Notes under the pieces: model-generated
The model's database searches: none
What the model was told of the DNA's origin: nothing
What the model saw: the letters and a program-made list of their open reading frames with translations, nothing else
Source of the DNA: Syntrophales bacterium
GTDB taxonomy: Bacteria > Desulfobacterota > Syntrophia > Syntrophales > UBA2192
NCBI GenBank assembly: GCA_035450185.1
Contig: DAOTMG010000006.1
Span: 27,905-91,904, forward strand
DNA length: 64,000 nt
Reading direction: 5' to 3'
Made by a program: the position numbers and the translations under genes
In this document: piece by piece, positions 3,887 to 15,355 of the stretch
How the letters are laid out: each line of letters opens with the position of its first letter
Position numbering within the stretch: the first letter of the stretch is position 1

Positions 3887-4726
3887 TCAGCCCCCCTCCC
3901 CTTCTCCGCCGTTTCCGCCGAGATAGGCTCGGATGACTTCGGGGTGGGACTGGATCCGGTCCGGCGACCCCTCGGCGATCTTCACGCCGAAGTTGAGAAC
4001 CGTCACCCTCTTCGAGATGCTCATCACGATCGACATGTCGTGTTCGACCAGGATCATGGTCTGTCGCCAGGACTCGTTGAGCTCCAGGAGAAAGCGGACC
4101 ATGTCCTCCTTCTCTTCGAGATTCATCCCGGCGAAGGGCTCGTCCAGGATGAGCAGCTTCGGTTCCAGCGCCAGGGCGCGGCCCAGCTCCACCCGCTTCC
4201 GCAGCCCGTAGGGGAGTGACCCTACCGGCTTGTTCCGGATCGACTGGATCTCCAGGAAATCGATGATCTCCTCCAGGACTCTCCGGTGTCGGACCTCCTC
4301 CTGCCGGACCTTTTTCGAAAAGAGCACCGCCTTCCCGAGCGGGTAGCGGCAATGGACATGGCGGGCGAGCAGGAGATTGGAGAGAACCGTGATGCCCGGG
4401 AAGAGCTCGATGTTCTGGAAGGTCCTTCCGATTCCGTGCTCGATCAGACGGTGGGTGTGAAGCCTCGTGATGTCTTCGCCGTTGAAGAGGATCTGTCCCT
4501 CCTGGCCCCGGTAGTATCCGGTGATGCAGTTGAGGAGGCTCGTCTTCCCGGCGCCGTTGGGGCCGATCACGGAGACGAGTTCACCCGTCGCGACGTCGAG
4601 GTCGACGGCGCTCAGGGCCACGATCCCCCCGAAACGGAGCGTCAGTCCCTTCACCTGGAGCTCGGCCTTTCGCTCCTGGTTGAGCGTCTCCGCGTAGATG
4701 CTGGGTTGGCCCCTGAAAGCCTTCAT
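3887..4726 (-). CDS. livG: Liv-type ABC transporter ATP-binding protein, LivG-like
   Basis: 279 aa with Walker A GPNGAGKTSLLNCITG, LivG-type insert, and Walker B LLILDEP. Confidence 0.9.
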   Translation of the reverse strand: MKAFRGQPSIYAETLNQERKAELQVKGLTLRFGGIVALSAVDLDVATGELVSVIGPNGAGKTSLLNCITGYYRGQEGQILFNGEDITRLHTHRLIEHGIGRTFQNIELFPGITVLSNLLLARHVHCRYPLGKAVLFSKKVRQEEVRHRRVLEEIIDFLEIQSIRNKPVGSLPYGLRKRVELGRALALEPKLLILDEPFAGMNLEEKEDMVRFLLELNESWRQTMILVEHDMSIVMSISKRVTVLNFGVKIAEGSPDRIQSHPEVIRAYLGGNGGEGEGG

Positions 4727-4742
4727 GGCGACCCGATCCCTT

Positions 4743-5954
4743 CTATTTCAGGAGTTTCATCTTTTCCTTGCCCGGACGGTAGAAATGGGTCCGGGGCAGG
4801 AAGGTGCCGTCCTCCTTCACCTGCACGATCCTTCCCTCAAAGGACCCCTCGTGATCGGCCGGCGTGTAGGTGATCTTCGGCATGAGACCGCCGAAATCCT
4901 CGTCCCGGAAGGATTCCATGGTCCTGTTGATCGTCTCCCGGTCCACCCTGCCGTATTTTTCCTGTGCGCGCTGAAAGGCCCTTTCCATGATCATGCCGAC
5001 GACGACCCCTTCCCAGTAAGCGGCGTCGAAACGGGCCACCGTCTTGTATCGCTTCCAGAGATCGGTCATGAGCGACATCCCTTTCGACTTGTCCGACGGG
5101 AGGGCGCCCGGGAACTGGATCTTCAAGCGGTTCCGGATCAGCCCCTTCCCCAGTTTGAAGAAATCGGGGTCCGTGGAGGTCCAGGTGCCGAAGAACTGCG
5201 GGTCGTAGCCGATGCGGTCGGCGCTCTTGAAGGCCGTCACGATGGTCGCCGGGAGCATCTGCATGAAGACGTACTCGGCCCCGGCTTTCTTCAGGCGCAG
5301 GAGCTCCGTGGTCAGGTCCACCGTCTTGGCGGGGAATTCTTCGATCGAAACGATCTGCACCCCGGTCTTCGCGGCGTACTCCTGGCTGGGCTTGTGGATG
5401 GAGCGGCCGTAGGCGTTGTTGTAGGTCAGAAGCCCGACCTTCGGCGCATCCTTCCCCTTGTGGGTCGCCCGGATGTACTCGAGGACGGCGTAGCAGTCGA
5501 GACGATAGCTTCCGAAGGGCAGGTACATGTATTCAATGGGCGCTTCCAGAATCTCCCAGCTCGTCGAGTAGTTGATGGTCGGGATCCTGTATTTCTGGAC
5601 GATCGGCTTTGCGGCAAGCCCCTCACCGGCGCCCCAGGTGGCAATCATGTCCACGTTGTCCTGGGTGGCGAATTTCCGGACGGCCGTGACGGCCTCGGGA
5701 ACCTTGTAGGCCGTGTCGACGAGAGTCATCTCAATCTTTCTTCCGGCGATACCCCCCTTGACCTCGTTGACATAGCGGAAATAATCCTGCTGCCCCTTGG
5801 CGTGAAACTGTCCCCAGGTGGAAGCGGGACCCGTGAGATTGATCGCGGCGCCGACCTTGATCGCCTTCGCCGCCGGCGACAACGCCGGCAGGCCGATGAC
5901 CGCGAGGATCGCGACGGTCATCATCGTCGTCATCATCATCAGATATCTACGCAT
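4743..5954 (-). CDS. Periplasmic substrate-binding protein of Liv-type ABC transporter (LivK/LivJ family)
   Basis: 403 aa with an N-terminal signal peptide (MRRYLMMMTTMMTVAILAVIGLPALSPAAKA) and a type I periplasmic binding fold sequence (IKVGAAINLTGP...). SD GAGGAGGG lies upstream of ATG 5954. Confidence 0.85.
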   Translation of the reverse strand: MRRYLMMMTTMMTVAILAVIGLPALSPAAKAIKVGAAINLTGPASTWGQFHAKGQQDYFRYVNEVKGGIAGRKIEMTLVDTAYKVPEAVTAVRKFATQDNVDMIATWGAGEGLAAKPIVQKYRIPTINYSTSWEILEAPIEYMYLPFGSYRLDCYAVLEYIRATHKGKDAPKVGLLTYNNAYGRSIHKPSQEYAAKTGVQIVSIEEFPAKTVDLTTELLRLKKAGAEYVFMQMLPATIVTAFKSADRIGYDPQFFGTWTSTDPDFFKLGKGLIRNRLKIQFPGALPSDKSKGMSLMTDLWKRYKTVARFDAAYWEGVVVGMIMERAFQRAQEKYGRVDRETINRTMESFRDEDFGGLMPKITYTPADHEGSFEGRIVQVKEDGTFLPRTHFYRPGKEKMKLLK

Positions 5955-5977
5955 CGTTTGTCCCTCCTCGAATCATG

Positions 5978-6009
5978 AAAATAAAAAAGGCCGCGTTTTC
6001 ACCGCGACC
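5978..6009 (-). terminator. Intrinsic terminator T2 in the 5' leader of the ABC/ACS operon
   Basis: Minus strand GGUCGCG-GUGAAAA-CGCGGCC (7-bp stem with one G-U) followed by UUUUUUAUUUU. Lies 24 nt upstream of the SD/ATG of the binding-protein gene. Confidence 0.55.
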
Positions 6010-6015
6010 ACAAAC

Positions 6016-6053
6016 AAAAAAGCCGCGGGCCCTTTTCCGGTCTGCCCGCGGCT
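6016..6053 (-). terminator. Intrinsic terminator T1 (attenuator terminator) in the 5' leader of the ABC/ACS operon
   Basis: Minus strand AGCCGCGGGC (6053-6044), 13-nt loop, GCCCGCGGCU (6030-6021). This is a 10-bp GC-rich stem followed by UUUUUGUUUG. Confidence 0.7.
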
Positions 6054-6074
6054 CAGTTCTTTCAGAGGTTCATG

Positions 6075-6155
6075 TCATGAGCGCTCCAGGCAGACCTCGC
6101 CAAAAAAGCCGAAAAAGCTTAAAAAGACGAAGAATCGGGCCTGGCGCTTCGACAT
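6075..6155 (-). CDS. Putative Phe-rich leader peptide (26 aa) of a transcription attenuator
   Basis: Own translation: ATG 6155 to TGA 6077-6075 gives MSKRQARFFVFLSFFGFFGEVCLERS. There are 7 Phe codons (TTC TTC . TTT . . TTT TTC . TTT TTT) within residues 8-18. AAGGGAG lies 10 nt upstream. The ORF sits between a promoter and two terminators. Below the ORF-track size cutoff. Confidence 0.55.
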   Translation of the reverse strand: MSKRQARFFVFLSFFGFFGEVCLERS

Positions 6156-6188
6156 TTCGATTTGACTCCCTTGAATGAGGTGCGTCCA

Positions 6189-6217
6189 TTCATAAACGAA
6201 GGGTCATCAAATGTCAA
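6189..6217 (-). promoter_or_regulatory. Sigma70-like promoter for the leader and ABC/ACS operon
   Basis: Minus strand TTGACA (6217-6212), 17 nt spacer, TATGAA(T) (6194-6189), with an A/T-rich upstream tract. Motif match only. Confidence 0.5.
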
Positions 6218-6342
6218 GGGAAAAAACATTTTTCTCCCGTCGGTTGCGGAGCCCGGACGCCCGCGACGAAGGGGCGCTTCGTTTGTTGTGATCATGTCCG
6301 TTTTGTGGTATTGAACCGGAAATTTTTTAAAGAGCGTACGGA

Positions 6343-7707
6343 ATGAATCCGGAAATCTTTCGGGAATACGATGTCCGGGGTCTCGTCGATCGGGATCTCG
6401 ATATCGACCTGGTCTACGATCTCGGCAGGGCCATCGGGACCTTCGGGGCCGATCGGGGCGTGAAAACCATGACGCTTGGACGGGATTGCCGCCTCAGTTC
6501 CGAAGCTTACGCCGACGCCATGAGGAAAGGCCTGACGGCAGCCGGCCTTCACGTCATCGATATCGGCCTCTGCGCGACTCCGATGCTCTATTTCTCCATC
6601 CGCCATTACGGGAGTGACGGCGGCGTGATGGTGACGGGAAGCCACAACCCGCCTGAATTCAACGGCTTCAAGATTTGCGTCGGTCCGGACACGATTTACG
6701 GCGAGGACATCCAGGCGCTTCGCGGGATCATGGAGAAAGGATCTTATGCCTCCGGCAGAGGCACGTCCGAAAGGGGGGACGTGACGGAGGCTTACGGAAA
6801 CATCCTCCACGGAAACGTGCAGGTCCGCAAGGGACTCCGGGTCGTCATCGACGGCGGGAACGGAACGGGCGGACACTTCATCCTTCCGATCCTGGAGAGG
6901 TTCGGCTGCCGGGTCACGGCCCTTTACTGTGACATGGACGGACGGTTTCCGAACCATTTCCCCGATCCCACCGTTCCGGAAAACCTCCGGGAGCTCACAG
7001 AGCGCGTTCTGGAGGAAAAGGCCGATGTGGGCATCGCTTTCGACGGTGACGGGGACCGGATCGGTGTTGTGACCGACCGGGGCGACATCCTCTGGGGGGA
7101 CGAGCTTCTCATCCTTTTTTCCCGCTTCGTATTGAAGGAACGGCCCGGTGCCACCGTCATCGGGGAGGTGAAGTGTTCCCACCGTCTTTACGACGACATC
7201 GAGAAGAACGGCGGGCGTTCCATCATGTGGAAGGCGGGGCACTCGCTGATCAAGGGGAAGATGAAGGAGGAGAAGGCGCTGCTTGCCGGGGAGATGAGCG
7301 GCCATCTTTTCTTCGCGGACCGCTATTTCGGATACGACGACGCCCTGTACGCGGCCGTGAGGCTGCTCGAGATCCTGTCGAAGACCGGAAAAAAGGTGAG
7401 CGAACTCCTCGCCGACGTTCCGAAGAGCTGCGCCACACCGGAGATCCGAATCGACTGTCCCGACGCGCTGAAGTTCAAGGCCACCGAGGCTGTCAAGAAA
7501 TACTTCCAGAAGGATTACCGGACGATCGAAACCGACGGCGTCCGTATCCTCTTCAGCGACGGATGGGGGCTCGTGAGGGCTTCCAACACCCAGCCCGTCC
7601 TGGTGCTCCGCTTCGAGGCCTCCACCCCCGAAACTCTCCGGGTGACGCGGGAGATGGTCGAGGGCGCCCTCAAGGCCATCCTGGTCGAACTGGGTGCGAA
7701 TCCTTGA
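6343..7707 (+). CDS. Phosphomannomutase/phosphoglucomutase (alpha-D-phosphohexomutase family)
   Basis: 454 aa with catalytic Ser loop TGSHNPPEFNGFK, metal loop FDGDGDR, and sugar loop GEMSGH. Confidence 0.93.
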   Translation: MNPEIFREYDVRGLVDRDLDIDLVYDLGRAIGTFGADRGVKTMTLGRDCRLSSEAYADAMRKGLTAAGLHVIDIGLCATPMLYFSIRHYGSDGGVMVTGSHNPPEFNGFKICVGPDTIYGEDIQALRGIMEKGSYASGRGTSERGDVTEAYGNILHGNVQVRKGLRVVIDGGNGTGGHFILPILERFGCRVTALYCDMDGRFPNHFPDPTVPENLRELTERVLEEKADVGIAFDGDGDRIGVVTDRGDILWGDELLILFSRFVLKERPGATVIGEVKCSHRLYDDIEKNGGRSIMWKAGHSLIKGKMKEEKALLAGEMSGHLFFADRYFGYDDALYAAVRLLEILSKTGKKVSELLADVPKSCATPEIRIDCPDALKFKATEAVKKYFQKDYRTIETDGVRILFSDGWGLVRASNTQPVLVLRFEASTPETLRVTREMVEGALKAILVELGANP

Positions 7708-7726
7708 GACGCACGGATAAAACCTC

Positions 7727-8296
7727 ATGCGCCGGTTGTCTGCCTGCCTGATAGCCCTTTTTTGTTTCTCATCCTTTTTCACGAGAGCGGCTTTCTGTCA
7801 GGTCAAGCCGTCTGATCAACGGACCCATTCGGCGGGAACCCCGGCCGGCGAATCCGGTCTTGCCACGATCACCGTCGGTTCCTCCACGCTCCGGGTCGAG
7901 ATCGCCCTGACGCCGGAAGCGCAGAGCCTGGGGCTCATGTTCAGGGACTCTCTCCCCTGGGACCGTGGGATGCTCTTCGTATATGACCGCCCGCAGCACC
8001 TCGCCTTCTGGATGAAGAACACGACCATCCCCCTCGACATCGCTTTTATTTCCGCCGATGGCCGCATTGAGGAGATCCTGGCCATGACCCCGCTTACGGA
8101 GAAGATTTACCGCTCCGGCGTGCCCGCCCTCTACGCCCTCGAGGTGAACCGGGGCTGGTTCAGGAAAAAGGGGTCAAGGTCGGGGACCGCATCCGGTTCT
8201 GACGGTCTCCGGCAGTCACCGGCGCCGAAGAGTGCGGGGAATCCGCGCAACCCCCGGGACCCCGATCATCACGAACCTACCTGCCGTACTCGATGA
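7727..8296 (+). CDS. DUF192 (COG1430) family protein with signal peptide; C-terminus probably frameshifted
   Basis: 189-aa ORF with a DUF192-like core (LGLMFRDSLPWDRGMLFVY...FWMKNTTIPLDIAFI...YALEVNRGWF). After the A5G4 run at 8165-8173 the -1 frame reads GVKVGDRIRF-stop (stop 8200-8202). The in-frame tail is low-complexity and overlaps the convergent M48 gene. Confidence 0.75.
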   Translation: MRRLSACLIALFCFSSFFTRAAFCQVKPSDQRTHSAGTPAGESGLATITVGSSTLRVEIALTPEAQSLGLMFRDSLPWDRGMLFVYDRPQHLAFWMKNTTIPLDIAFISADGRIEEILAMTPLTEKIYRSGVPALYALEVNRGWFRKKGSRSGTASGSDGLRQSPAPKSAGNPRNPRDPDHHEPTCRTR

Positions 8297-9734
8297 CCTT
8301 GAGGAGCGTTGCGGCGGGAACGGTCTGCCCCGGCGTCATGCCGTTGAGAATCACCGTCTCCTTCAGCCGCTTTTCAGGAACGGCGAGGGCTTTCAGGGCG
8401 TTTTCGACGGTGTCCGTTTTGCCCGTGGACCGGATTCGGACCCGGTTCGGCTGAACGTTGATCTTCCTGGGGTCCTTCAATTCCTGAAAGCCGCCGAAGG
8501 TGTCCTGAAAGGTCTTCTCGTACGGGGGGAAGAGACGCAGGGCGCTCATGCCGTGGAAGGCGAAAACCTGCTTCTCCTTCTGGATGAAATAGGAAAGGAC
8601 CCTCATCGTGCCCTGGCTGCTTCGCACTTCCGAAAGAAGTTGCTGGGAAGGCAACTGGTGAACGGAGCGCGATTCACTCCGGAGGATCTTCGCGTTGGTC
8701 TTGGACACAAACTTTTGCGCGGCATCCGCCGCCGACTGACCGGGGACGCCGGAGAAAAGAATCACGGCATCCTTCTTCGGGCTCATCATCTGGACGACGG
8801 CCGGCGTGTCGTTGACCTTCCAATCCTTCGGCAGGGGAAACTGCAGCCGCTGTCCGGGCCGGTAGTAAACACCCCCCTCTGCGTACCCCTGCCTCGGGTC
8901 GTTTCCGTAGATCATGCCGTCGATGACTCTCAGGTACTTCTCCCGGTCGACCTTCGGGTTTTTCAGGCCCGTTTTCTGCTGCCACTGCCTCGACTGTGAC
9001 CGGACGGCGCTTTCACGATCCACGGGACTCGGGTGGGTGGAAAACCAGCTCGGAAGCCCGCTTTTGTCCTCTCGGGAATCCATTCGCTGCAGGGTTTCGA
9101 AAAAGTCCGCCATACGGGAGGCGTCATATCCCGCCTTCGTGGCATATTCAACCGCCAGGGAGTCGGCTTCCCTTTCATCGTCCCGGCTGAATTTCAAGAA
9201 CAGGACACCGACGCCCATCTGGGCAAGGCTCGACAGGCCGGGGATGCCCAGGACGCTGAGCCCGATATCCAGCCCGAACAGGCCGACTTGGGCCACCTGT
9301 GCCTTGCTGAGCTTCTGTGCCGAGTGACGGGCCGTGACGTGGCCGATCTCATGGCCCATAACCCCTGCCAGCTCGGCCTCACTGTTCAGGGCGGCCAGAA
9401 TTCCCCGGGTGAAATAGATATATCCCCCCGGCGCGGCAAAGGCGTTGACCACCGGGTCGTCGAGGACCTTGAAGTGCCAGTCGAGCGCCGGGCGATGGGA
9501 TAATTTCCCCATGCGCAGCCCCAATTCGCCGACATAGGCCGTCACGCGCTGATCTTCGTAGAGGCCGTACTCTTTGATCACCCCGGTGTCGGATTTCCGG
9601 CCCAGTTGTATCTCTTCCTCTTCACTGACAAGCATGAACTCCTGGCGCCCGCTGACCGGGTTGACGGCACAGGCGACCATCAGTCCGAAGAGGATCCCCA
9701 TCACGACCGAAGAAACAACTTTTTTCCACATCAT
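8277..9734 (-). CDS. M48 family zinc metalloprotease, lipoprotein
   Basis: 485 aa with lipobox LMVAC and zinc motif GHEIGHVTARH. Shows M48/BepA-like N-terminal domain features. Confidence 0.88.
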   Translation of the reverse strand: MMWKKVVSSVVMGILFGLMVACAVNPVSGRQEFMLVSEEEEIQLGRKSDTGVIKEYGLYEDQRVTAYVGELGLRMGKLSHRPALDWHFKVLDDPVVNAFAAPGGYIYFTRGILAALNSEAELAGVMGHEIGHVTARHSAQKLSKAQVAQVGLFGLDIGLSVLGIPGLSSLAQMGVGVLFLKFSRDDEREADSLAVEYATKAGYDASRMADFFETLQRMDSREDKSGLPSWFSTHPSPVDRESAVRSQSRQWQQKTGLKNPKVDREKYLRVIDGMIYGNDPRQGYAEGGVYYRPGQRLQFPLPKDWKVNDTPAVVQMMSPKKDAVILFSGVPGQSAADAAQKFVSKTNAKILRSESRSVHQLPSQQLLSEVRSSQGTMRVLSYFIQKEKQVFAFHGMSALRLFPPYEKTFQDTFGGFQELKDPRKINVQPNRVRIRSTGKTDTVENALKALAVPEKRLKETVILNGMTPGQTVPAATLLKVIEYGR

Positions 9735-10313
9735 TCATCCCCCGGAGTAACGATCGAACTCCTTTCTTCGAGAAGCGGTCACGTCCATCACCGGCATGTC
9801 ATGCTCCACGAAGATCAGTTTATCCGTTTCAAACCCCCATGCCCGTGCTTTTGATATCAGATCATCGCGGATCGCTTCATCCATCACCTTTTCCCGGCTG
9901 AGAATCCAGAGATAGGACCGACTGGGGCCCGTGATCATGGCGTAGGTGTATTCCTCCCGGTCCAGAGCAATGACGTGGTATCCCCCACAGAAAGGGCCTG
10001 AAAAAGACACTTCCAGGCTCCCGATATTCCGATCCCCGCTGAAACGGGCCGTGCCACCGGTCTCCCGCCACTGCCCTTTCCGGGTATCGAAACCCCGGTT
10101 CAGGACTTCGATCTCGCCGCCGCTTCCCCGTGTATATCGAGCCGTCACGTTGCTGAGACCCCGCTCGAAGGGATGATCGAGCCTCGCGATCTCGTACCAG
10201 GTCCCCAGGAACCGTTCGTCGTCAAAACCGCTTACGGCCTGTAGCCCCTTGGGGATCCCGGTACATCCGGCGATCATGAAAAAAAGAATCAGGGTGGATG
10301 TCAGGCCTTTCAT
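9735..10313 (-). CDS. blc: Bacterial lipocalin (outer membrane lipoprotein Blc)
   Basis: 192 aa with lipobox IAGC and lipocalin motif FLGTWYEIARLDHPFERG. Confidence 0.88.
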   Translation of the reverse strand: MKGLTSTLILFFMIAGCTGIPKGLQAVSGFDDERFLGTWYEIARLDHPFERGLSNVTARYTRGSGGEIEVLNRGFDTRKGQWRETGGTARFSGDRNIGSLEVSFSGPFCGGYHVIALDREEYTYAMITGPSRSYLWILSREKVMDEAIRDDLISKARAWGFETDKLIFVEHDMPVMDVTASRRKEFDRYSGG

Positions 10314-10333
10314 GGGTCTTTTCCCGTCCCGGA

Positions 10334-10726
10334 TTATTTTGTCTCCTGGAGGTCGTCTTTGAAGAACCAGAAATCGTACCGGGCCCCCGGCATGTTGCAG
10401 TCTGTCTGGACCTTATAGAGGTCGCCCTTCGTTTCGATCACCGTCCCTTTGCTCTTCCGGTAAAAAAACTTGGCATGGTACATCCGGATGGGCCATTCAC
10501 TGGGGTGCGTGTGGTCGGCCCAGACCTCCGCGCGATCCGAGAAAACGGCCGTGACAAAAGCCGTGATCTTCACAGGGTCACCCTGCTTCTTGAGTTCCGC
10601 CATCCGCTCCATGGTCGTCACATGCCAGAACCCGACGGCGTTCTCCTTGATGACCACGTTTTCCTGCGCGTGGCTGACACCGGCTAAAAACAACAACAGC
10701 AACGAGAATAGGACGATTTTTTTCAT
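10334..10726 (-). CDS. Hypothetical secreted protein
   Basis: 130 aa with a cleavable signal peptide (MKKIVLFSLLLLFLAGVSHA). No recognisable motif. SD GGGAGG lies upstream. Confidence 0.6.
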   Translation of the reverse strand: MKKIVLFSLLLLFLAGVSHAQENVVIKENAVGFWHVTTMERMAELKKQGDPVKITAFVTAVFSDRAEVWADHTHPSEWPIRMYHAKFFYRKSKGTVIETKGDLYKVQTDCNMPGARYDFWFFKDDLQETK

Positions 10727-10765
10727 GCCTTCAGACCTCCCTGGTGGATTGGATGTGCCTATGTA

Positions 10766-10786
10766 TCACATTCCAAATGAATGTGA
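10766..10786. promoter_or_regulatory. Perfect 8-5-8 inverted repeat (candidate operator) in the promoter region of the secreted hypothetical gene
   Basis: TCACATTC-caaat-GAATGTGA, read directly from the sequence. It overlaps a weak TTCACA-16-TACATA promoter-like match on the minus strand, 40-60 nt upstream of ATG 10726. Confidence 0.4.
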
Positions 10787-10835
10787 ACGTTTTTTGTTCT
10801 TCCCTTCAAATCCGTTCTGGAAACGGGCAGAACCC

Positions 10836-10866
10836 AAAAAAGGGGCTGCCGATAAATCGCAGCCCC
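10836..10866 (-). terminator. Intrinsic terminator after tRNA-Pro
   Basis: Minus strand GGGGCUGC-GAUUUAUCG-GCAGCCCC (8-bp stem) followed by UUUUUU, 10 nt downstream of the tRNA 3' end. Confidence 0.75.
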
Positions 10867-10876
10867 CTGGCGTCCA

Positions 10877-10953
10877 TGGTCGGGGCGGCCCGATTTGAAC
10901 GGGCGGCATCCTGCTCCCAAAGCAGGCGCGCTACCAGGCTGCGCTACGCCCCG
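10877..10953 (-). tRNA. tRNA-Pro (anticodon UGG)
   Basis: Minus strand CGGGGCGTAGCGCAGCCTGGTAGCGCGCCTGCTTTGGGAGCAGGATGCCGCCCGTTCAAATCGGGCCGCCCCGACCA. Clean cloverleaf (7/4/5/5-bp stems), anticodon loop TTTGGGA, encoded CCA, 77 nt. Confidence 0.93.
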
Positions 10954-10965
10954 ATCTCGAATAAA

Positions 10966-11092
10966 GAAGTTGAGAAGATAAGAAGGTATGAAGTTGAGAA
11001 CAGTGCAATGTGGATGAATCTCCAAACTTAAAATATCCGATCTTCTCAGCTTCCGATCTTCTTAACTTCTGATCTTCCTGACTTCCGTCCTT
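10966..11092. repeat. Inverted arrays of 8-nt-period GAAG repeats flanking a ~40-nt spacer
   Basis: Plus strand 10966-11005: GAAGttga GAAGataa GAAGgtat GAAGttga GAACagtg. Minus strand 11092-11036: GAAGtcag GAAGatca GAAGttaa GAAGatcg GAAGctga GAAGatcg. Arms 10966-10993 and 11042-11069 are about 22/28 complementary. The right arm overlaps the last codons and stop of rdgB. Confidence 0.6.
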
Positions 11093-11721
11093 GTGATCCA
11101 CTCCCTGAACCCGGCAAAGGCCCTTCCCCTGTGGCTGACGACATTTTTCACGTCGGGGAGGAGTTCCGCCGCCGTATGCCCGAGACCCGGGTCTTCAAAA
11201 ACCGGGTCATACCCGAATCCTCTTTCGCCCCGCGGCTCGAAGACGATTCTCCCGGGCCAGCGGCCTTCGAAGGTCTCGCAGGTTCCGTCGGGACGGAAAA
11301 AGACAAGGACGCACCGGAACACGGCGGTCCGCTTTTCCAGCGGAACGCCCTGGAGTTCCCGAAGCAGTTTGTCGATGTTTTTTTCATCCGTCGCATCGAG
11401 ACCGGCGTAACGGGAGGAATAAATCCCCGGGGCGCCGCCCAGCGCGTCGACTTCGAGGCCCGAGTCGTCGGCAAGCACCGCCTCCCCGGTGATCCCCGAA
11501 ACCGTCCGGGCCTTGATCAGGGCGTTCTCGAGAAAGTTGTTCCCCTCTTCCGGAATGTCCGGGACGTCAGGGAAATCCGCGAGCGACAGGATCTCCAGGT
11601 CGCAATCCCGGAACATGGATTTGAGTTCGCCGACTTTGCCCTGATTTCTGGTTGCCAGTACGATCTTCAGCGGACCAGGTCCCCCGCAAGCTCGATCTGT
11701 TTGCCCGTCAGATAGGCGCAT
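11062..11721 (-). CDS. rdgB: dITP/XTP pyrophosphatase (RdgB/HAM1 family)
   Basis: KIVLATRNQGKVGELK..., FGYDPVF, and VSHRGRA motifs. Start is uncertain. ATG 11721 overlaps rph by 55 nt. The only in-frame alternative next to the conserved KIVLAT is CTG 11670, in a CTGA overlap with the rph stop. Confidence 0.88.
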   Translation of the reverse strand: MRLSDGQTDRACGGPGPLKIVLATRNQGKVGELKSMFRDCDLEILSLADFPDVPDIPEEGNNFLENALIKARTVSGITGEAVLADDSGLEVDALGGAPGIYSSRYAGLDATDEKNIDKLLRELQGVPLEKRTAVFRCVLVFFRPDGTCETFEGRWPGRIVFEPRGERGFGYDPVFEDPGLGHTAAELLPDVKNVVSHRGRAFAGFREWITRTEVRKIRS

Positions 11722-12392
11722 CCCTGAAGGGCGAGGTCGGTCATCCGGTCGTGAAGATCCCGGGGAAAGGGCATCGCTTCCGCGGTTCCCTGGATCTCGA
11801 CGAAAAGGCCGTCCCGGGTCACCACGAAATTCATGTCCACCTCGGCCGAAGAATCCTCCCCGTAGTCGAGATCCAGAAGAAGCCGTCCCCCCACGAGACC
11901 CACGCTCACGGCGGAGACCAAATTTTTGACCGGCATCTGACGGATCATCCCCAGCGCATTCATTTTCCGGAAGGCCTGGATCAGAGCGAGGCAGCCGCCG
12001 GTGATGGCCGCACTACGGGTGCCGCCGTCGGCCTGAACGACGTCGCAGTCGACGATCACGGTCCGTTCCCCGAAGGCCTGCAGATCCGTGACGGCCCGAA
12101 GCGAACGGCCGATGAGCCGCTGGATTTCGAGGGTCCTCCCGCCCTGCCGGCCCCGTACGGCCTCCCGGGGGCTCCGGACATGGGTCGATCCGGGAATCAT
12201 GGCGTATTCGGCGGTGACCCATCCCCTTCCCGTGTTCTTCAAAAAGGGCGGCACCGATTCGTCGATGGAGGCCGTGCAGAGGACCCTCGTGTTCCCCATC
12301 TCGATCTGGACGGATCCCGCGGGATGCCTGAGAACATCCCCGGTGATCTTCACCTTCCGCATCTCGTTCCACTGTCGCCCGTCGGATCTCAT
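11667..12392 (-). CDS. rph: Ribonuclease PH
   Basis: 241 aa, MRSDGRQWNEMRKVKITGDVLRHPAGSVQIEMGNTRVLCTAS..., full-length RNase PH-like. Confidence 0.95.
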   Translation of the reverse strand: MRSDGRQWNEMRKVKITGDVLRHPAGSVQIEMGNTRVLCTASIDESVPPFLKNTGRGWVTAEYAMIPGSTHVRSPREAVRGRQGGRTLEIQRLIGRSLRAVTDLQAFGERTVIVDCDVVQADGGTRSAAITGGCLALIQAFRKMNALGMIRQMPVKNLVSAVSVGLVGGRLLLDLDYGEDSSAEVDMNFVVTRDGLFVEIQGTAEAMPFPRDLHDRMTDLALQGCAYLTGKQIELAGDLVR

Positions 12393-13097
12393 CTAAAAAA
12401 ATTCCTTGATCGATTCGCTCAGGGCATGGGCGAGGAAACGCTGCATCCCTTCGTCCGTGAGTTTCTTGCGGTCCTTCGAATTCGTGGCAAAACCGACTTC
12501 CAGGACGACGGCCGGGATGTTGAGACCCTGCAGGACCAGGACGGGCCCTTCACGGAGCCCCCGATCCATCCGGGGAAAGACCTTGTCCAGGTGGGACTGG
12601 AGGATTTTGGCGAAGCGGACGCTTTCGTTGAGATGCTGGGTCCGGACCATGTCCTTGACGATCTCCGTCGGGGCACCCCGGGTTCCCTTCGCGGACGCCG
12701 ATGTCCGGAATCCCTGGAAATAGACCTCATAGCCCGACGACTCCCGGTCGAACCCCGCGTTGACATGGATGCTCAGAAACAGGTCCGCCTCCGACTTGAT
12801 GGCTTCCCGGACCCGGTCGGAGCGGGGCACATCGATATCCCCCAGTCTCGAAAGGCGCACCCGTACCTTCCTGGATCCTTCGAATTCCTTTTCGACGAGC
12901 CGCGCGACGGTCAGGGTCAGGTCCTTCTCGAAAAGACCCGTCGAGAGCCTCACGCCGTCGTCCCGCCCGCCATGAGCCGGATCGATCAGGACGACGTAAC
13001 GCCCTTCCCGGTCCTTCCCGTCCCCGGCGGCGGGAAAGAGGGCGAGCCCGATCAGGAAAAACAGGGCCAGCAGAATCGGTCGAGCGGTTTTTTTCAT
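12393..13097 (-). CDS. N-acetylmuramoyl-L-alanine amidase (Amidase_3 family)
   Basis: VVLIDPAHGGRDDG and LSIHVNA motifs, with signal peptide MKKTARPILLALFFLIGLALF. Start trimmed to ATG 13097, which is preceded by GGAGAG. The ORF-track start at 13166 is an upstream extension. Confidence 0.88.
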   Translation of the reverse strand: MKKTARPILLALFFLIGLALFPAAGDGKDREGRYVVLIDPAHGGRDDGVRLSTGLFEKDLTLTVARLVEKEFEGSRKVRVRLSRLGDIDVPRSDRVREAIKSEADLFLSIHVNAGFDRESSGYEVYFQGFRTSASAKGTRGAPTEIVKDMVRTQHLNESVRFAKILQSHLDKVFPRMDRGLREGPVLVLQGLNIPAVVLEVGFATNSKDRKKLTDEGMQRFLAHALSESIKEFF

Positions 13098-13136
13098 AAC
13101 GATTTCTTCTCTCCGCAAGGGGTTCAGGGGTAGATG

Positions 13137-13166
13137 CTTATACTGCAATCCCCCGTTTCCTGTCAA
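13137..13166 (-). promoter_or_regulatory. Sigma70-like promoter upstream of amidase-rph-rdgB
   Basis: Minus strand TTGACA (13166-13161), 18 nt spacer, TATAAG (13142-13137). Motif match only. Confidence 0.4.
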
Positions 13167-13180
13167 CGGGCAAGGCCGCG

Positions 13181-15355
13181 TCAGTGCATCTTCTTCTTGT
13201 CGGTCTTGAGGTCCGAGACCCTCACCCGTTCAACGGAAATCACGCTTTTGAGTTTCTTCAAGACCGCCACGACCTCGTTGAAGTGCTTGAGGTCTCGGAC
13301 ATCGAGATCGAACTCGCAGACGGCGATCTTGTCCGGTGTCGTGTCGACGGTGGCATGGCTGATGTTGATGTCGAGGGCGGAGATGCCTGCGCTCAGCTCC
13401 GCCAGGAGGCCTTTCTTGTCGTGGCAGACCACCCGCATGTGAACGGGGAAGGTCTGCTTGTCCCGGACGTTCCAGTGGACCTCGAGAAGTCTTTCCGCAT
13501 CCAGGTCCTGCACCATCGGGCAATTGGTCGTGTGGACGATCATTCCCCGGCCCCTCGAAATGTGCCCGATGACCTCATCCCCCGGCAGGGGGTTGCAGCA
13601 CTTGGCGAACCTGACCATGATGTCGTCGATGCCGGTGATCGAGATGCCGGCCGATTCGGGTTTCTTGAACTTCTTGAGAATCTTCTCCGGGAGGGAATCT
13701 TCCCGCTTCTCCTCGCCGGGCAGAAAACGGTTGACGATGGAACGGGCCGAAACCTTCCCGTAGCCGATGAGCGCCATGATGTCGTCGACGTCCGTGACGG
13801 ACTGCTCCTCGCAGATCTTCTTCAGCTCATCCGATTTGAGAACCTGGGCGAACTTCATGTGGTGTTTCCGGAACTCCTTCTCGAGGATGTCCCGGCCCAG
13901 GGCGATGCTCCGGTTCCTCTCTTCCGTCTTGATCCATGCCTTGATCTTCGAAATGGCCCGGGGAGTCACGGCGTACTTGAGCCAGTCCTTGCTGGGGTGG
14001 TGACCGGCCTGGGTGACGATCTCGACGGTGTCCCCGTTCTGCAGTTCGTATTTCAGCGGGACCAGGTTGCGGTTTACGCGGGCGCCGATGCACTGGTTCC
14101 CCACGTCGGTGTGGATGCTGTAGGCGAAATCGATCGGCGTCGCCCCCTTGGGGAAGGCCTTCACCTCTCCCTTTGGGGTGAAGACGTAAACCTCGTCGGG
14201 GAACAGCGCGACCTTCAGGTTCCGCATGAACTCCCTCGGGTCTTTCAGCTCCTGCTGGACCTCGAGAAGATCCCGGAGTTTGCGGATCTGCTCTTCGTCG
14301 CGGCGCCGCAGCATGTCGCCTTCCTTGTAGCGCCAGTGAGCCGCGATCCCCGATTCGGCCCACAGGTGCATCTCCCGGGTCCGGATCTGGATCTCCAGCC
14401 GCTCCCCGTAAGGGCCGATGACGGTCGTGTGCAGGGAACGGTAGTTGTTCGCCTTGGGCATGGCGATATAATCCTTGAAGCGGCCCGGGACGGGCTTCCA
14501 CAGGGCGTGGACCACGCTCAGCGCTTCGTAGCACTCTTTCACCTTGTTGGAATGGAGAATGATCCGAAAGGCGAGAAGATCGTACACCTCGTCGAAATCG
14601 ATCTGCTGTTCCTGCATCTTCCGGTAGATGCTGAAATAATGCTTGGCCCGTCCTTCGACTTCCCCCTCCAGCCCGTAGTTCCGGATCTCCTTCTCGATGA
14701 TCTCTCGAATCTCTTTCGTGTATTTCTCCCGTCCCTCTTTCTTCATGGCGATCCGCCGCGCCAGATCCTGAAACTCCAGGGGCTGGAGATGCATGAAGGC
14801 CAGGTCCTCCAGTTCCGTTTTCATCCAGTTGATGCCCAGCCGGTTGGCGAGCGGCGCGTAGAGGTCAAGGGTTTCGCGGGCGATATATCGCTGGCGGTCC
14901 TGTGCCTGGTACTGCAGTGTGCGCATGTTGTGGAGCCGGTCGGCCAGGCGGACCAGGATGATACGGATGTCCGAAGACATGGCCAGGAGCATCTTCCTGA
15001 AATTTTCCGCCTGACGCTCCTGCTGGCTGGCGAGCGTGATCTTGCTGATCTTCGTGAGGCCGTCGACGAGAAAGGCCACCTCCTTCCCGAAGGCTTTTTC
15101 GATCTCATCGAGAGAGGCCAGGGTGTCCTCGACGGTGTCGTGAAGAATGCCGGTCGCGATGGATGCGGCGTCCATGTGCATGTCCGCCAGCACGTTTGCC
15201 ACTTCCATGGGGTGGGTCAGGTAAGGCTCACCGGAAAGCCGCAGCTGTCCCTGATGAACCGAGGCGGAGAAGATGTAGGCCTTCTCGATCATCTCGAGAT
15301 CGGACGGTTCGGCGTATCGCTGCACTTTTTCCAGGATGTCCGTGATCCGGATCAT
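13181..15355 (-). CDS. relA: Bifunctional (p)ppGpp synthetase/hydrolase (RelA/SpoT homolog)
   Basis: 724 aa with an HD hydrolase domain (HPMEVA...ILHDTVEDT), a synthetase domain (YRSLHTTV), and TGS and ACT regions. Its start ATG overlaps the proS stop (ATGA). Confidence 0.95.
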   Translation of the reverse strand: MIRITDILEKVQRYAEPSDLEMIEKAYIFSASVHQGQLRLSGEPYLTHPMEVANVLADMHMDAASIATGILHDTVEDTLASLDEIEKAFGKEVAFLVDGLTKISKITLASQQERQAENFRKMLLAMSSDIRIILVRLADRLHNMRTLQYQAQDRQRYIARETLDLYAPLANRLGINWMKTELEDLAFMHLQPLEFQDLARRIAMKKEGREKYTKEIREIIEKEIRNYGLEGEVEGRAKHYFSIYRKMQEQQIDFDEVYDLLAFRIILHSNKVKECYEALSVVHALWKPVPGRFKDYIAMPKANNYRSLHTTVIGPYGERLEIQIRTREMHLWAESGIAAHWRYKEGDMLRRRDEEQIRKLRDLLEVQQELKDPREFMRNLKVALFPDEVYVFTPKGEVKAFPKGATPIDFAYSIHTDVGNQCIGARVNRNLVPLKYELQNGDTVEIVTQAGHHPSKDWLKYAVTPRAISKIKAWIKTEERNRSIALGRDILEKEFRKHHMKFAQVLKSDELKKICEEQSVTDVDDIMALIGYGKVSARSIVNRFLPGEEKREDSLPEKILKKFKKPESAGISITGIDDIMVRFAKCCNPLPGDEVIGHISRGRGMIVHTTNCPMVQDLDAERLLEVHWNVRDKQTFPVHMRVVCHDKKGLLAELSAGISALDINISHATVDTTPDKIAVCEFDLDVRDLKHFNEVVAVLKKLKSVISVERVRVSDLKTDKKKMH

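Follow-up and report, generated by a model that had tools for sequence, protein, structure and literature searches.

This study concerns a leader rich in phenylalanine (Phe) codons in a 64,000-nt stretch of DNA from a Syntrophales bacterium (contig DAOTMG010000006.1, assembly GCA_035450185.1; the whole stretch is called the window below). The leader lies on the minus strand between positions 6217 and 5955 and precedes an operon for a Liv-type ATP-binding cassette (ABC) importer and two coenzyme A (CoA) ligases. Comparison with related genomes and RNA folding give strong grounds for regarding it as a ribosome-mediated transcription attenuator that senses charged tRNA-Phe. Its anatomy, conservation, covariation, and thermodynamic feasibility are established by the observations that follow.

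Anatomy of the leader

The leader lies within a 388-bp gap between a divergent phosphoglucomutase gene (6343-7707, plus strand) and a Peripla_BP_6 binding-protein gene (5954-4743, minus strand), the first structural gene of the operon. A preliminary description of this DNA had listed a promoter, a Shine-Dalgarno sequence, a 26-codon open reading frame (ORF) with seven Phe codons, several pairing segments, two terminators (T1 and T2), and the ATG of the first structural gene; all of them were found at the minus-strand coordinates it gave.

6189 to 6217, minus strand: putative sigma-70-type promoter, TTGACA-17 nt-TATGAA (TTGACA 6217-6212, TATGAA 6194-6189), read from the sequence
6166 to 6172, minus strand: Shine-Dalgarno sequence AAGGGAG of the leader ORF, ending 10 nt before the ATG at 6155
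6075 to 6155, minus strand: leader ORF of 26 codons plus stop, MSKRQARFFVFLSFFGFFGEVCLERS, by translation; Phe-rich ORFs occupy the same place in relatives
6102 to 6134, minus strand: regulatory codons, seven Phe in codons 8-18, read from the sequence
6139 to 6147, minus strand: segment 1, GCGCCAGGC, 5' half of the anti-antiterminator, paired with 6091-6081 in the minimum-free-energy (MFE) structure
6081 to 6096, minus strand: segment 2, GGUCUGCCUGGAGCGC, partner of segment 1 or segment 3 by pair counts and alignment; its sub-stretch GCCUGGAGCGC (6091-6081) pairs with segment 1 and its sub-stretch GGUCUGCCUG (6096-6087) with segment 3
6039 to 6048, minus strand: segment 3, CGGGCAGACC, which pairs with segment 2 to form the antiterminator and overlaps the 5' arm of T1
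6012 to 6053, minus strand: terminator T1, stem 6053-6044 with 6030-6021 (10 bp, 9 of them G-C), followed by U6GU3; -25.3 kcal/mol
5978 to 6009, minus strand: terminator T2, GGUCGCG-loop-CGCGGCC at 6009-5989, followed by UUUUUUAUUUU; from the terminator scan and folding
5962 to 5969, minus strand: Shine-Dalgarno sequence GAGGAGGG of the first structural gene, before the ATG at 5954

The leader has the parts by which leader-peptide attenuators are recognized. A short ORF with a Shine-Dalgarno sequence and a start codon stands upstream of the first structural gene; it contains a cluster of Phe codons, and an intrinsic terminator lies between it and that gene. The antiterminator shares bases with the 5' arm of the terminator, and the alternative 1:2 hairpin uses a segment 1 that a stalled ribosome can mask. 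In addition, segment 5, the 5' arm of T2, and segment 4 (6030-6021), the 3' arm of T1, are complementary. The folding energy of the 231-nt leader is -85.5 kcal/mol (z = -2.44), and its MFE structure contains the 1:2 hairpin, T1, and T2. The terminator scan listed T2 and a shorter version of T1. The consensus promoter scan did not list the TATGAA promoter; its rule requires a T at position 6 of the -10 hexamer.

The sequence GGTCTGCC occurs at nine sites in the window against 3.1 expected, a number reached in none of 100 shuffles; two of these sites are those of the leader, and the others include 3691, 8322, 13423, 18493, 34248, 41811, and 62444.

Conservation in relatives

A search with the binding protein, restricted to one genome per species, yielded 80 loci (63-87% identity) from distinct species represented by metagenome-assembled genomes (MAGs), nearly all of Syntrophales, Syntrophaceae, or Smithella. 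Two loci had no upstream sequence, which left 78 to be scored. The element was found in 73 of them: 65 copies are complete, three are cut by a contig end, one (locus L009) carries small changes, and four (L056, L070, L071, and L074) are variants with a shorter peptide that ends in ...GFFFFD/E immediately before segment 2. Among the 78 upstream regions it is absent from the five most distant loci, L075-L079 (63-66% identity). The leader ORFs of the relatives hold the same position, span about 20-35 codons, and contain three to nine in-frame Phe codons. Their peptides follow the pattern ...FFxFFSFFGFF(R/G)EVCLLxS, with the form ...AVFFYFFSFIxxKVCLxxS in Smithella. With the arrangement retained before the orthologous binding-protein gene in 73 of 78 loci, an origin by chance is excluded. 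The preliminary description had suggested looking in relatives for conserved Phe-codon runs and compensatory base changes; both were seen.

Of 64 relatives, 25 have a promoter-type match, TTGAC(A/T)-N16-18-TAnnn(A/T), at the same distance (107-132 nt) before segment 2, and the promoter is nearly identical in the closest ones, L001 and L002. The putative -10 hexamers in the window and in L001-L072 (TATGAA, TAGAAA, TATTGA, TAGAGA, and TATAGA) end in A, not in the canonical T. In L014 and L024, tandem paralogous binding-protein genes lie about 9 kb apart on contig CAWEPT010000009.1, each with its own Phe leader.

Pairing and covariation

The pairings were scored in an alignment of 66 leaders (A1). 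The segment 2 core GGUCUGCC is nearly invariant, with its U.UGCC positions invariant, as is the segment 3/T1 5' arm, CCG(U/C)GGGC(A/G)GA, which contains GGGCAGACC. The T1 helix is paired in 96.2% of cells, compared with at most 52% when its 3' partner is slid. Double-sided changes, such as U-A to C-G and G-C to A-U, affect five of its 12 pairs (44 cells), and RNAalifold recovered T1 independently. The antiterminator helix 2:3 is paired in 96.3% of cells, compared with at most 48% when slid. Segment 3 changes only from A to G or from C to U, which preserves its pairing with the invariant segment 2, and segment 4 compensates. In L070, the 2:3 helix contains a true compensatory change from G-C to A-U (GGUCUACC with GGUAGACC).

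Nearly all of the 66 leaders have a segment 1 that is complementary to segment 2 and to the bases following it; the mean duplex energy is -17.3 kcal/mol and the mean z is -2.2. The 3' end of segment 1 usually lies within about 6 nt of the first Phe codon; in a minority of leaders it lies further upstream. Segment 1 covaries with the variable bases that follow GGUCUGCC: GCGCCAGG pairs with CCUGGAGCGC in the window, and UGGGCAGA with UCUGCCCA in L010.

The peptide tail EVCL was considered as a conserved arrest motif and rejected, since leaders translate the bases concerned in three different frames or have them past the stop codon. Across leaders, GGUCUGCC (6096-6089 in the window) is translated as E-V-C, G-L-P, or R-S-A (L127, L097, and L179 compared with the window), and in the variant leaders of the FFFFD/E type it follows the stop codon. 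The third codon positions of the EVCL tail are fixed. Judged from the aligned leaders, the tail is an RNA constraint and not a peptide motif. T1 and T2 were also considered as members of a dispersed family of repeated terminators; this was ruled out, as the 64 kb contain one GCCGYGG...CCRCGGC hairpin and each locus contains one element.

Predicted switching in the nascent transcript

Local stabilities were -34.2 kcal/mol for 1:2, -25.0 for 2:3, -25.3 for T1, -13.2 for T2, and -12.9 for the 4:5 duplex. The RNA was folded up to position 6032, that is, before segment 4 is synthesized. Without a ribosome, the 1:2 hairpin formed and segment 3 was free. With the ribosomal A site on Phe codon 8, 9, 11, 14, or 15, a 10-bp 2:3 helix became the MFE structure; a ribosome at the stop codon masked segment 2. 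The 1:2/2:3/3:4 architecture proposed in the preliminary description is thus supported both by the alignment of relatives and by folding of the nascent transcript with a positioned ribosome.

The response to Phe that we infer, like the relay between terminators and the physiological role considered below, would run as follows. Transcription would start about 25 nt upstream of the 26-codon leader ORF. When Phe-tRNA is plentiful, the ribosome would reach the stop codon and cover segment 2, or would drop off and allow 1:2 to form; segment 3 would then be free to form T1 with segment 4, T2 (5:6) would act as a second stop, and the operon would be off. When Phe-tRNA is scarce, the ribosome would stall at the first Phe codons and cover segment 1. 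With segment 4 not yet transcribed, the GGUCUGCCUG stretch of segment 2 would then pair with CGGGCAGACC (segment 3), and T1 would be blocked. The released segment 4 could pair with the 5' arm of T2, by which T2 would be bypassed too, and the polymerase would then transcribe the seven-gene operon.

Several points weigh against reading the leader as a Phe-sensing attenuator. The preliminary description had suggested comparing terminator and antiterminator by folding the leader with a ribosome mask; in that comparison, the full leader at equilibrium kept T1 and T2 at every mask position and never adopted the antiterminator, whereas the transcript cut before segment 4 did switch to 2:3. The switch must therefore be kinetic, as in classical systems, and it depends on an assumed kinetic order and on coupling of transcription to translation. 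A ribosome stalled on the last two Phe codons covers segment 2, which would favour termination. The 2:3 helix shows almost no double-sided covariation in the main family, because segment 2 is invariant. Finally, the relatives are all uncultured MAGs.

The same RNA core in front of other operons

A metagenome scan with the pattern GGTCTGCC-N20-50-CCGYGGGCRGA returned at least 120 stretches, which are mostly chance matches and do not represent frequencies. Among the matches listed, 22 stretches passed a Phe-codon or terminator filter; most of these have the same core and terminators, and they occur in several contexts. The loci with other codon runs or other downstream genes are as follows (Trp, tryptophan; Tyr, tyrosine).

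L172, leader 5738-5875 and genes 6241-13819: MGGQLLNIWWWWCKEKGGVCP, codon run WWWW; IorA, IorB, LivH, LivM, LivG, LivF, and a PaaK-like ligase
L145 and L181: mixed F/W/Y codons; classical DAHP synthase, in L145 also prephenate dehydrogenase and prephenate dehydratase
L159, L168, and L179: FFYFHWYFYYWF-type, mixed Phe/Trp/Tyr codons; DeoC-type aldolase (ADH-synthase-like), in L159 additionally 3-dehydroquinate synthase II and chorismate mutase/prephenate dehydratase
L139: Phe codons; free-standing AMP ligase of 514 aa
L156, 2660-2800: MKPQRFRRHCYYGYGYLRRSARR, codon run YYGYGY; another Liv-type binding protein, 26% identical to that of the window

The shared core consists of GGUCUGCC ... GCCGYGGGCRGACC ... 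CCCRCGGC-Un and is combined with Phe, Trp, Tyr, or mixed aromatic codons in three reading frames. The amino acid of the codon run tracks the downstream pathway while the core stays constant, a pattern that, on comparative grounds, argues strongly for the codons as the sensor. The DeoC-family aldolase and 3-dehydroquinate synthase II, which stand behind mixed aromatic leaders, form an archaeal-type pair. The operon behind the Tyr leader of L156 may be the Tyr counterpart of the Phe operon. In L172, a repeat-like spacer of about 370 nt separates the terminator from iorA. By this comparison of sequences, the operon of the window is placed in a putative aromatic-supply regulon.

The second terminator

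Of 64 loci, 39 have T2; it is missing from the Smithella group. In every case the T2 stem repeats the sequence of the outer stem of T1 (GGCCGUG...), which makes segment 4 complementary to segment 5. The mean energy of the 4:5 duplex, taken over the 29 loci that were parsed cleanly, is -16.2 kcal/mol, compared with -8.1 kcal/mol for shuffled partners and -17.2 kcal/mol for the T2 hairpin. From the automated T1/T2 parser only these averages are used, because it assigned T1 wrongly in several loci whose fold included 4:5 pairing. In L009 (about 3900-3990), the first hairpin has no U-run (UUGAUAG); in the clade of L010, L014, L017, L024, and L080, the T1 hairpin is followed by CUUUCUG and T2 by seven U. 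In all these loci, the second hairpin alone is terminator-like. With a poor or missing U-run after T1 in these loci, regulation would reach an effective terminator only through 4:5. A six-segment relay, in which 1:2, 3:4, and 5:6 specify termination and 2:3 and 4:5 specify read-through, is tentatively proposed on this basis, at somewhat less than even confidence. The shared stem sequence of T1 and T2 could instead be a retained duplication.

The operon and its cargo

The operon comprises seven genes, four of which lie within the window.

4743 to 5954, minus strand: periplasmic solute-binding protein, Peripla_BP_6, 403 aa
3887 to 4726, minus strand: LivG-type ABC ATPase, 279 aa
1936 to 3882, minus strand: FadD-type acyl-CoA synthetase, AMP-binding and AMP-binding_C_3, 648 aa
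1042 to 1920, minus strand: LivH-type permease, 292 aa

The 648-aa CoA synthetase is thus placed between livG and livH. Past the window start, the source contig continues with LivM, LivF, and, after 157 nt, a 419-aa PaaK-like ligase. The ligase directly follows LivF in this source locus (L081) and likewise in L104 (Smithella-type), L204, and L205; in L204 (Desulfomonilia), the gap is 15 nt and the Phe leader is of the variant form, and in L205, the gap is 87 nt and the leader is standard. In L203, a paralogue of the PaaK-like ligase is unlinked.

The cargo of the importer was proposed in the preliminary description to be Phe or a Phe precursor. The operon is consistent with this claim, which the PaaK-like ligase and the Trp-leader sister operon sharpen toward an aryl-acid precursor rather than Phe itself. 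Our best guess, in which we place even confidence, is that phenylacetate or a similar aryl acid would be taken up and salvaged via phenylacetyl-CoA and phenylpyruvate to Phe. The aryl acid would be imported and activated with CoA, indolepyruvate/arylpyruvate:ferredoxin oxidoreductase (IOR) would carboxylate the CoA ester reductively to phenylpyruvate, and transamination would yield Phe. We favour this cargo because both CoA ligases of the operon are conserved, because the Trp-leader operon (L172) links IOR genes to an importer and a PaaK-like ligase, and because IorA and an AMP ligase, divergently arranged, adjoin the orthologous binding-protein gene in two distant, leaderless loci (L075:100-3700 and L078:170-3660). 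It also accords with the known ligands of COG0683 proteins and with IOR chemistry. Of the COG0683 binding proteins tested in Rhodopseudomonas palustris, most bound aromatic or fatty acids, not branched-chain amino acids (PMC3223731). IOR interconverts arylpyruvates and arylacetyl-CoA (PMC5109826), and Methanococcus maripaludis converts aryl acids to aromatic amino acids via IOR, according to Porat et al. as cited in PMC4162585.

Three observations count against an aryl-acid cargo. The 419-aa ligase scores 183 and 194 bits against the PaaK equivalog cut-offs of 646 and 700 (TIGR02155 and NF041878, respectively). Judged by these scores it is PaaK-like only, and its automatic name at JGI is 'phenylacetate-CoA ligase'. 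Among solved structures, 3lkb (E = 1e-31) is the best relative of the binding protein; it was deposited as a branched-chain amino-acid binding protein. No IOR gene was found in the window or in the 20-kb source locus (L081). The binding protein is not LivJ or LivK by score (49 bits against a cut-off of 477); this score and the CoA synthetase inside the operon both depart from the LivJ/K-HMGF type.

The strongest alternative keeps the same attenuator and has the transporter import L-phenylalanine, with the two CoA ligases serving another purpose. The simplest logic is that starvation induces an amino-acid importer; the whole operon is Liv-type, and 3lkb again points to an amino-acid ligand. The LIV-I system of E. 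coli is able to import L-phenylalanine. Against this stand the FadD-type synthetase inside the operon and the PaaK-like ligase at its end, which are kept from Syntrophales to Desulfomonilia; the free-standing AMP ligase behind a Phe leader with the same core (L139); the Trp-codon sister operon, in which ABC genes are joined to IorAB and a PaaK-like ligase; and the ligands of most of the tested R. palustris proteins noted above. Import of L-phenylalanine is accordingly regarded as unlikely, while still deserving consideration beside the aryl-acid cargo.

A second alternative is that the operon is catabolic, taking up and activating aromatic acids for degradation via benzoyl-CoA, and that the Phe-rich ORF is not a sensor. 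Syntrophales do degrade aromatic acids, and other members of the order, like Desulfobacteraceae, do so through benzoyl-CoA. In Desulfococcus multivorans, moreover, phenylacetate or phenylpyruvate induces IOR, PaaK-type ligases, and uptake systems (PMC5109826). The geometry of the leader, however, would turn expression on at low Phe-tRNA, which is the opposite of substrate induction and argues against a catabolic role; codon identity also follows the downstream pathway, de novo aro genes included, a pattern that fits a supply regulon only. We consider a catabolic operon improbable. Least probable of all is a conserved RNA bound by a protein or small ligand, or an arrest peptide at the tail, with the Phe codons secondary: across operons and lineages, GGUCUGCC and CCGYGGGCRGA vary unusually little for stems of an attenuator, and the EVCL tail appears conserved, but the varied reading of GGUCUGCC keeps no peptide motif, the invariance is explained by the pairing of segment 2 with 1 and 3 and of segment 3 with 2 and 4, no Rfam family matches, and nothing but the amino acid of the codon run distinguishes operons of different function.

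Taken with the attenuator and its codon runs, the aryl-acid cargo leads to a broader proposal, to which we give slightly less than an even chance. In uncultured Syntrophales and their relatives, one portable attenuator core (GGUCUGCC, the GCCGYGGGCRGACC terminator, and often a second terminator reached by 4:5), fitted with varied codon runs, may control an aromatic-supply regulon that includes a salvage route not assigned before. Arylacetates (phenylacetate in the case of the Phe-leader operon, indoleacetate in that of the Trp-leader operon) would be taken up by dedicated Liv-type importers, activated by FadD-type and PaaK-like ligases, and passed as CoA esters to IOR, which would carboxylate them reductively on the way to the amino acids.

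Relation to known systems

The preliminary description had recommended an Rfam search, which produced no family match: cmscan of 5700-6600 against Rfam, with E values up to 10, gave only unrelated sub-threshold hits and no match to a Phe, Leu, Trp, His, or Thr leader or to a T-box. For example, Xoo2 scored 22 bits against a cut-off of 45 bits, driven by the terminator. The best hit in the region, mir-598 (5892-5940, E = 0.016), was dismissed as an artefact of an ATG/ACG codon repeat (MMMTTMMT) in the signal peptide of the binding protein.

To our knowledge, nearly all documented leader-peptide attenuators belong to biosynthetic or tRNA-synthetase operons in Proteobacteria and Actinobacteria. 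The pheA (pheL) and pheST (pheM) leaders of E. coli resemble the leader of the window in having a short ORF with about five to seven Phe codons, the 1:2/2:3/3:4 layout, and an intrinsic terminator, and they would share with it read-through at low tRNA-Phe charging. The pheL family has been described in Gammaproteobacteria (PMC3082878). In contrast to pheL and pheM, to which it has no sequence or covariance-model similarity, the leader of the window occurs in Syntrophales (Thermodesulfobacteriota), targets an ABC importer and two CoA ligases instead of a biosynthetic enzyme or a tRNA synthetase, has two tandem terminators, and shares its core with other operons. The trp, his, leu, thr, and ilv attenuators of Proteobacteria and Actinobacteria belong to the same mechanism class, with codons beside segment 1 and the stop near segment 2. 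Their sequences are operon-specific, whereas the core found here is reused with different codon runs. T-box leaders before amino-acid transporter genes of Firmicutes likewise induce uptake through a terminator/antiterminator switch when tRNA is uncharged; a T-box binds the tRNA directly and needs no translation, whereas the leader of the window has a translated codon run and matches no T-box model.

In anaerobes, physiological work revealed the aryl-acid route to aromatic amino acids decades ago. The role proposed for the operon is the same as that of the IOR route in rumen anaerobes and M. maripaludis (Porat et al., cited in PMC4162585); the operon of the window has no linked IOR genes, whereas L172 joins IorAB, importer, and PaaK-like ligase. 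A dedicated importer/ligase operon or attenuation control for this route was not found in the searchable literature. R. palustris has Liv-type (COG0683) systems with adjacent CoA ligases (PMC3223731), which are catabolic and not known to be under leader-peptide control. A description of the present leader was not found in the full-text literature, including the genome-wide attenuator survey PMC2965389, subscription journals lying outside the search. The mechanism is thus classical; what is new is the importer/CoA-ligase target, the lineage, the use of one core with different codon runs, and a putative relay across two terminators.

Significance

This study describes a well-conserved attenuator family, in a poorly studied anaerobic lineage, that would control an operon for uptake and CoA activation. 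Its shared core and apparent six-segment relay are relevant to the evolution of attenuators and to the design of RNA switches. Since the codon run names an amino acid, the leader can serve as a functional label for transporters and ligases that are otherwise named only generically as 'branched-chain amino acid ABC' or 'AMP-binding'. For the aryl-acid route, the leader points to candidate genes for the uptake and activation steps, with concrete proteins and ligands.

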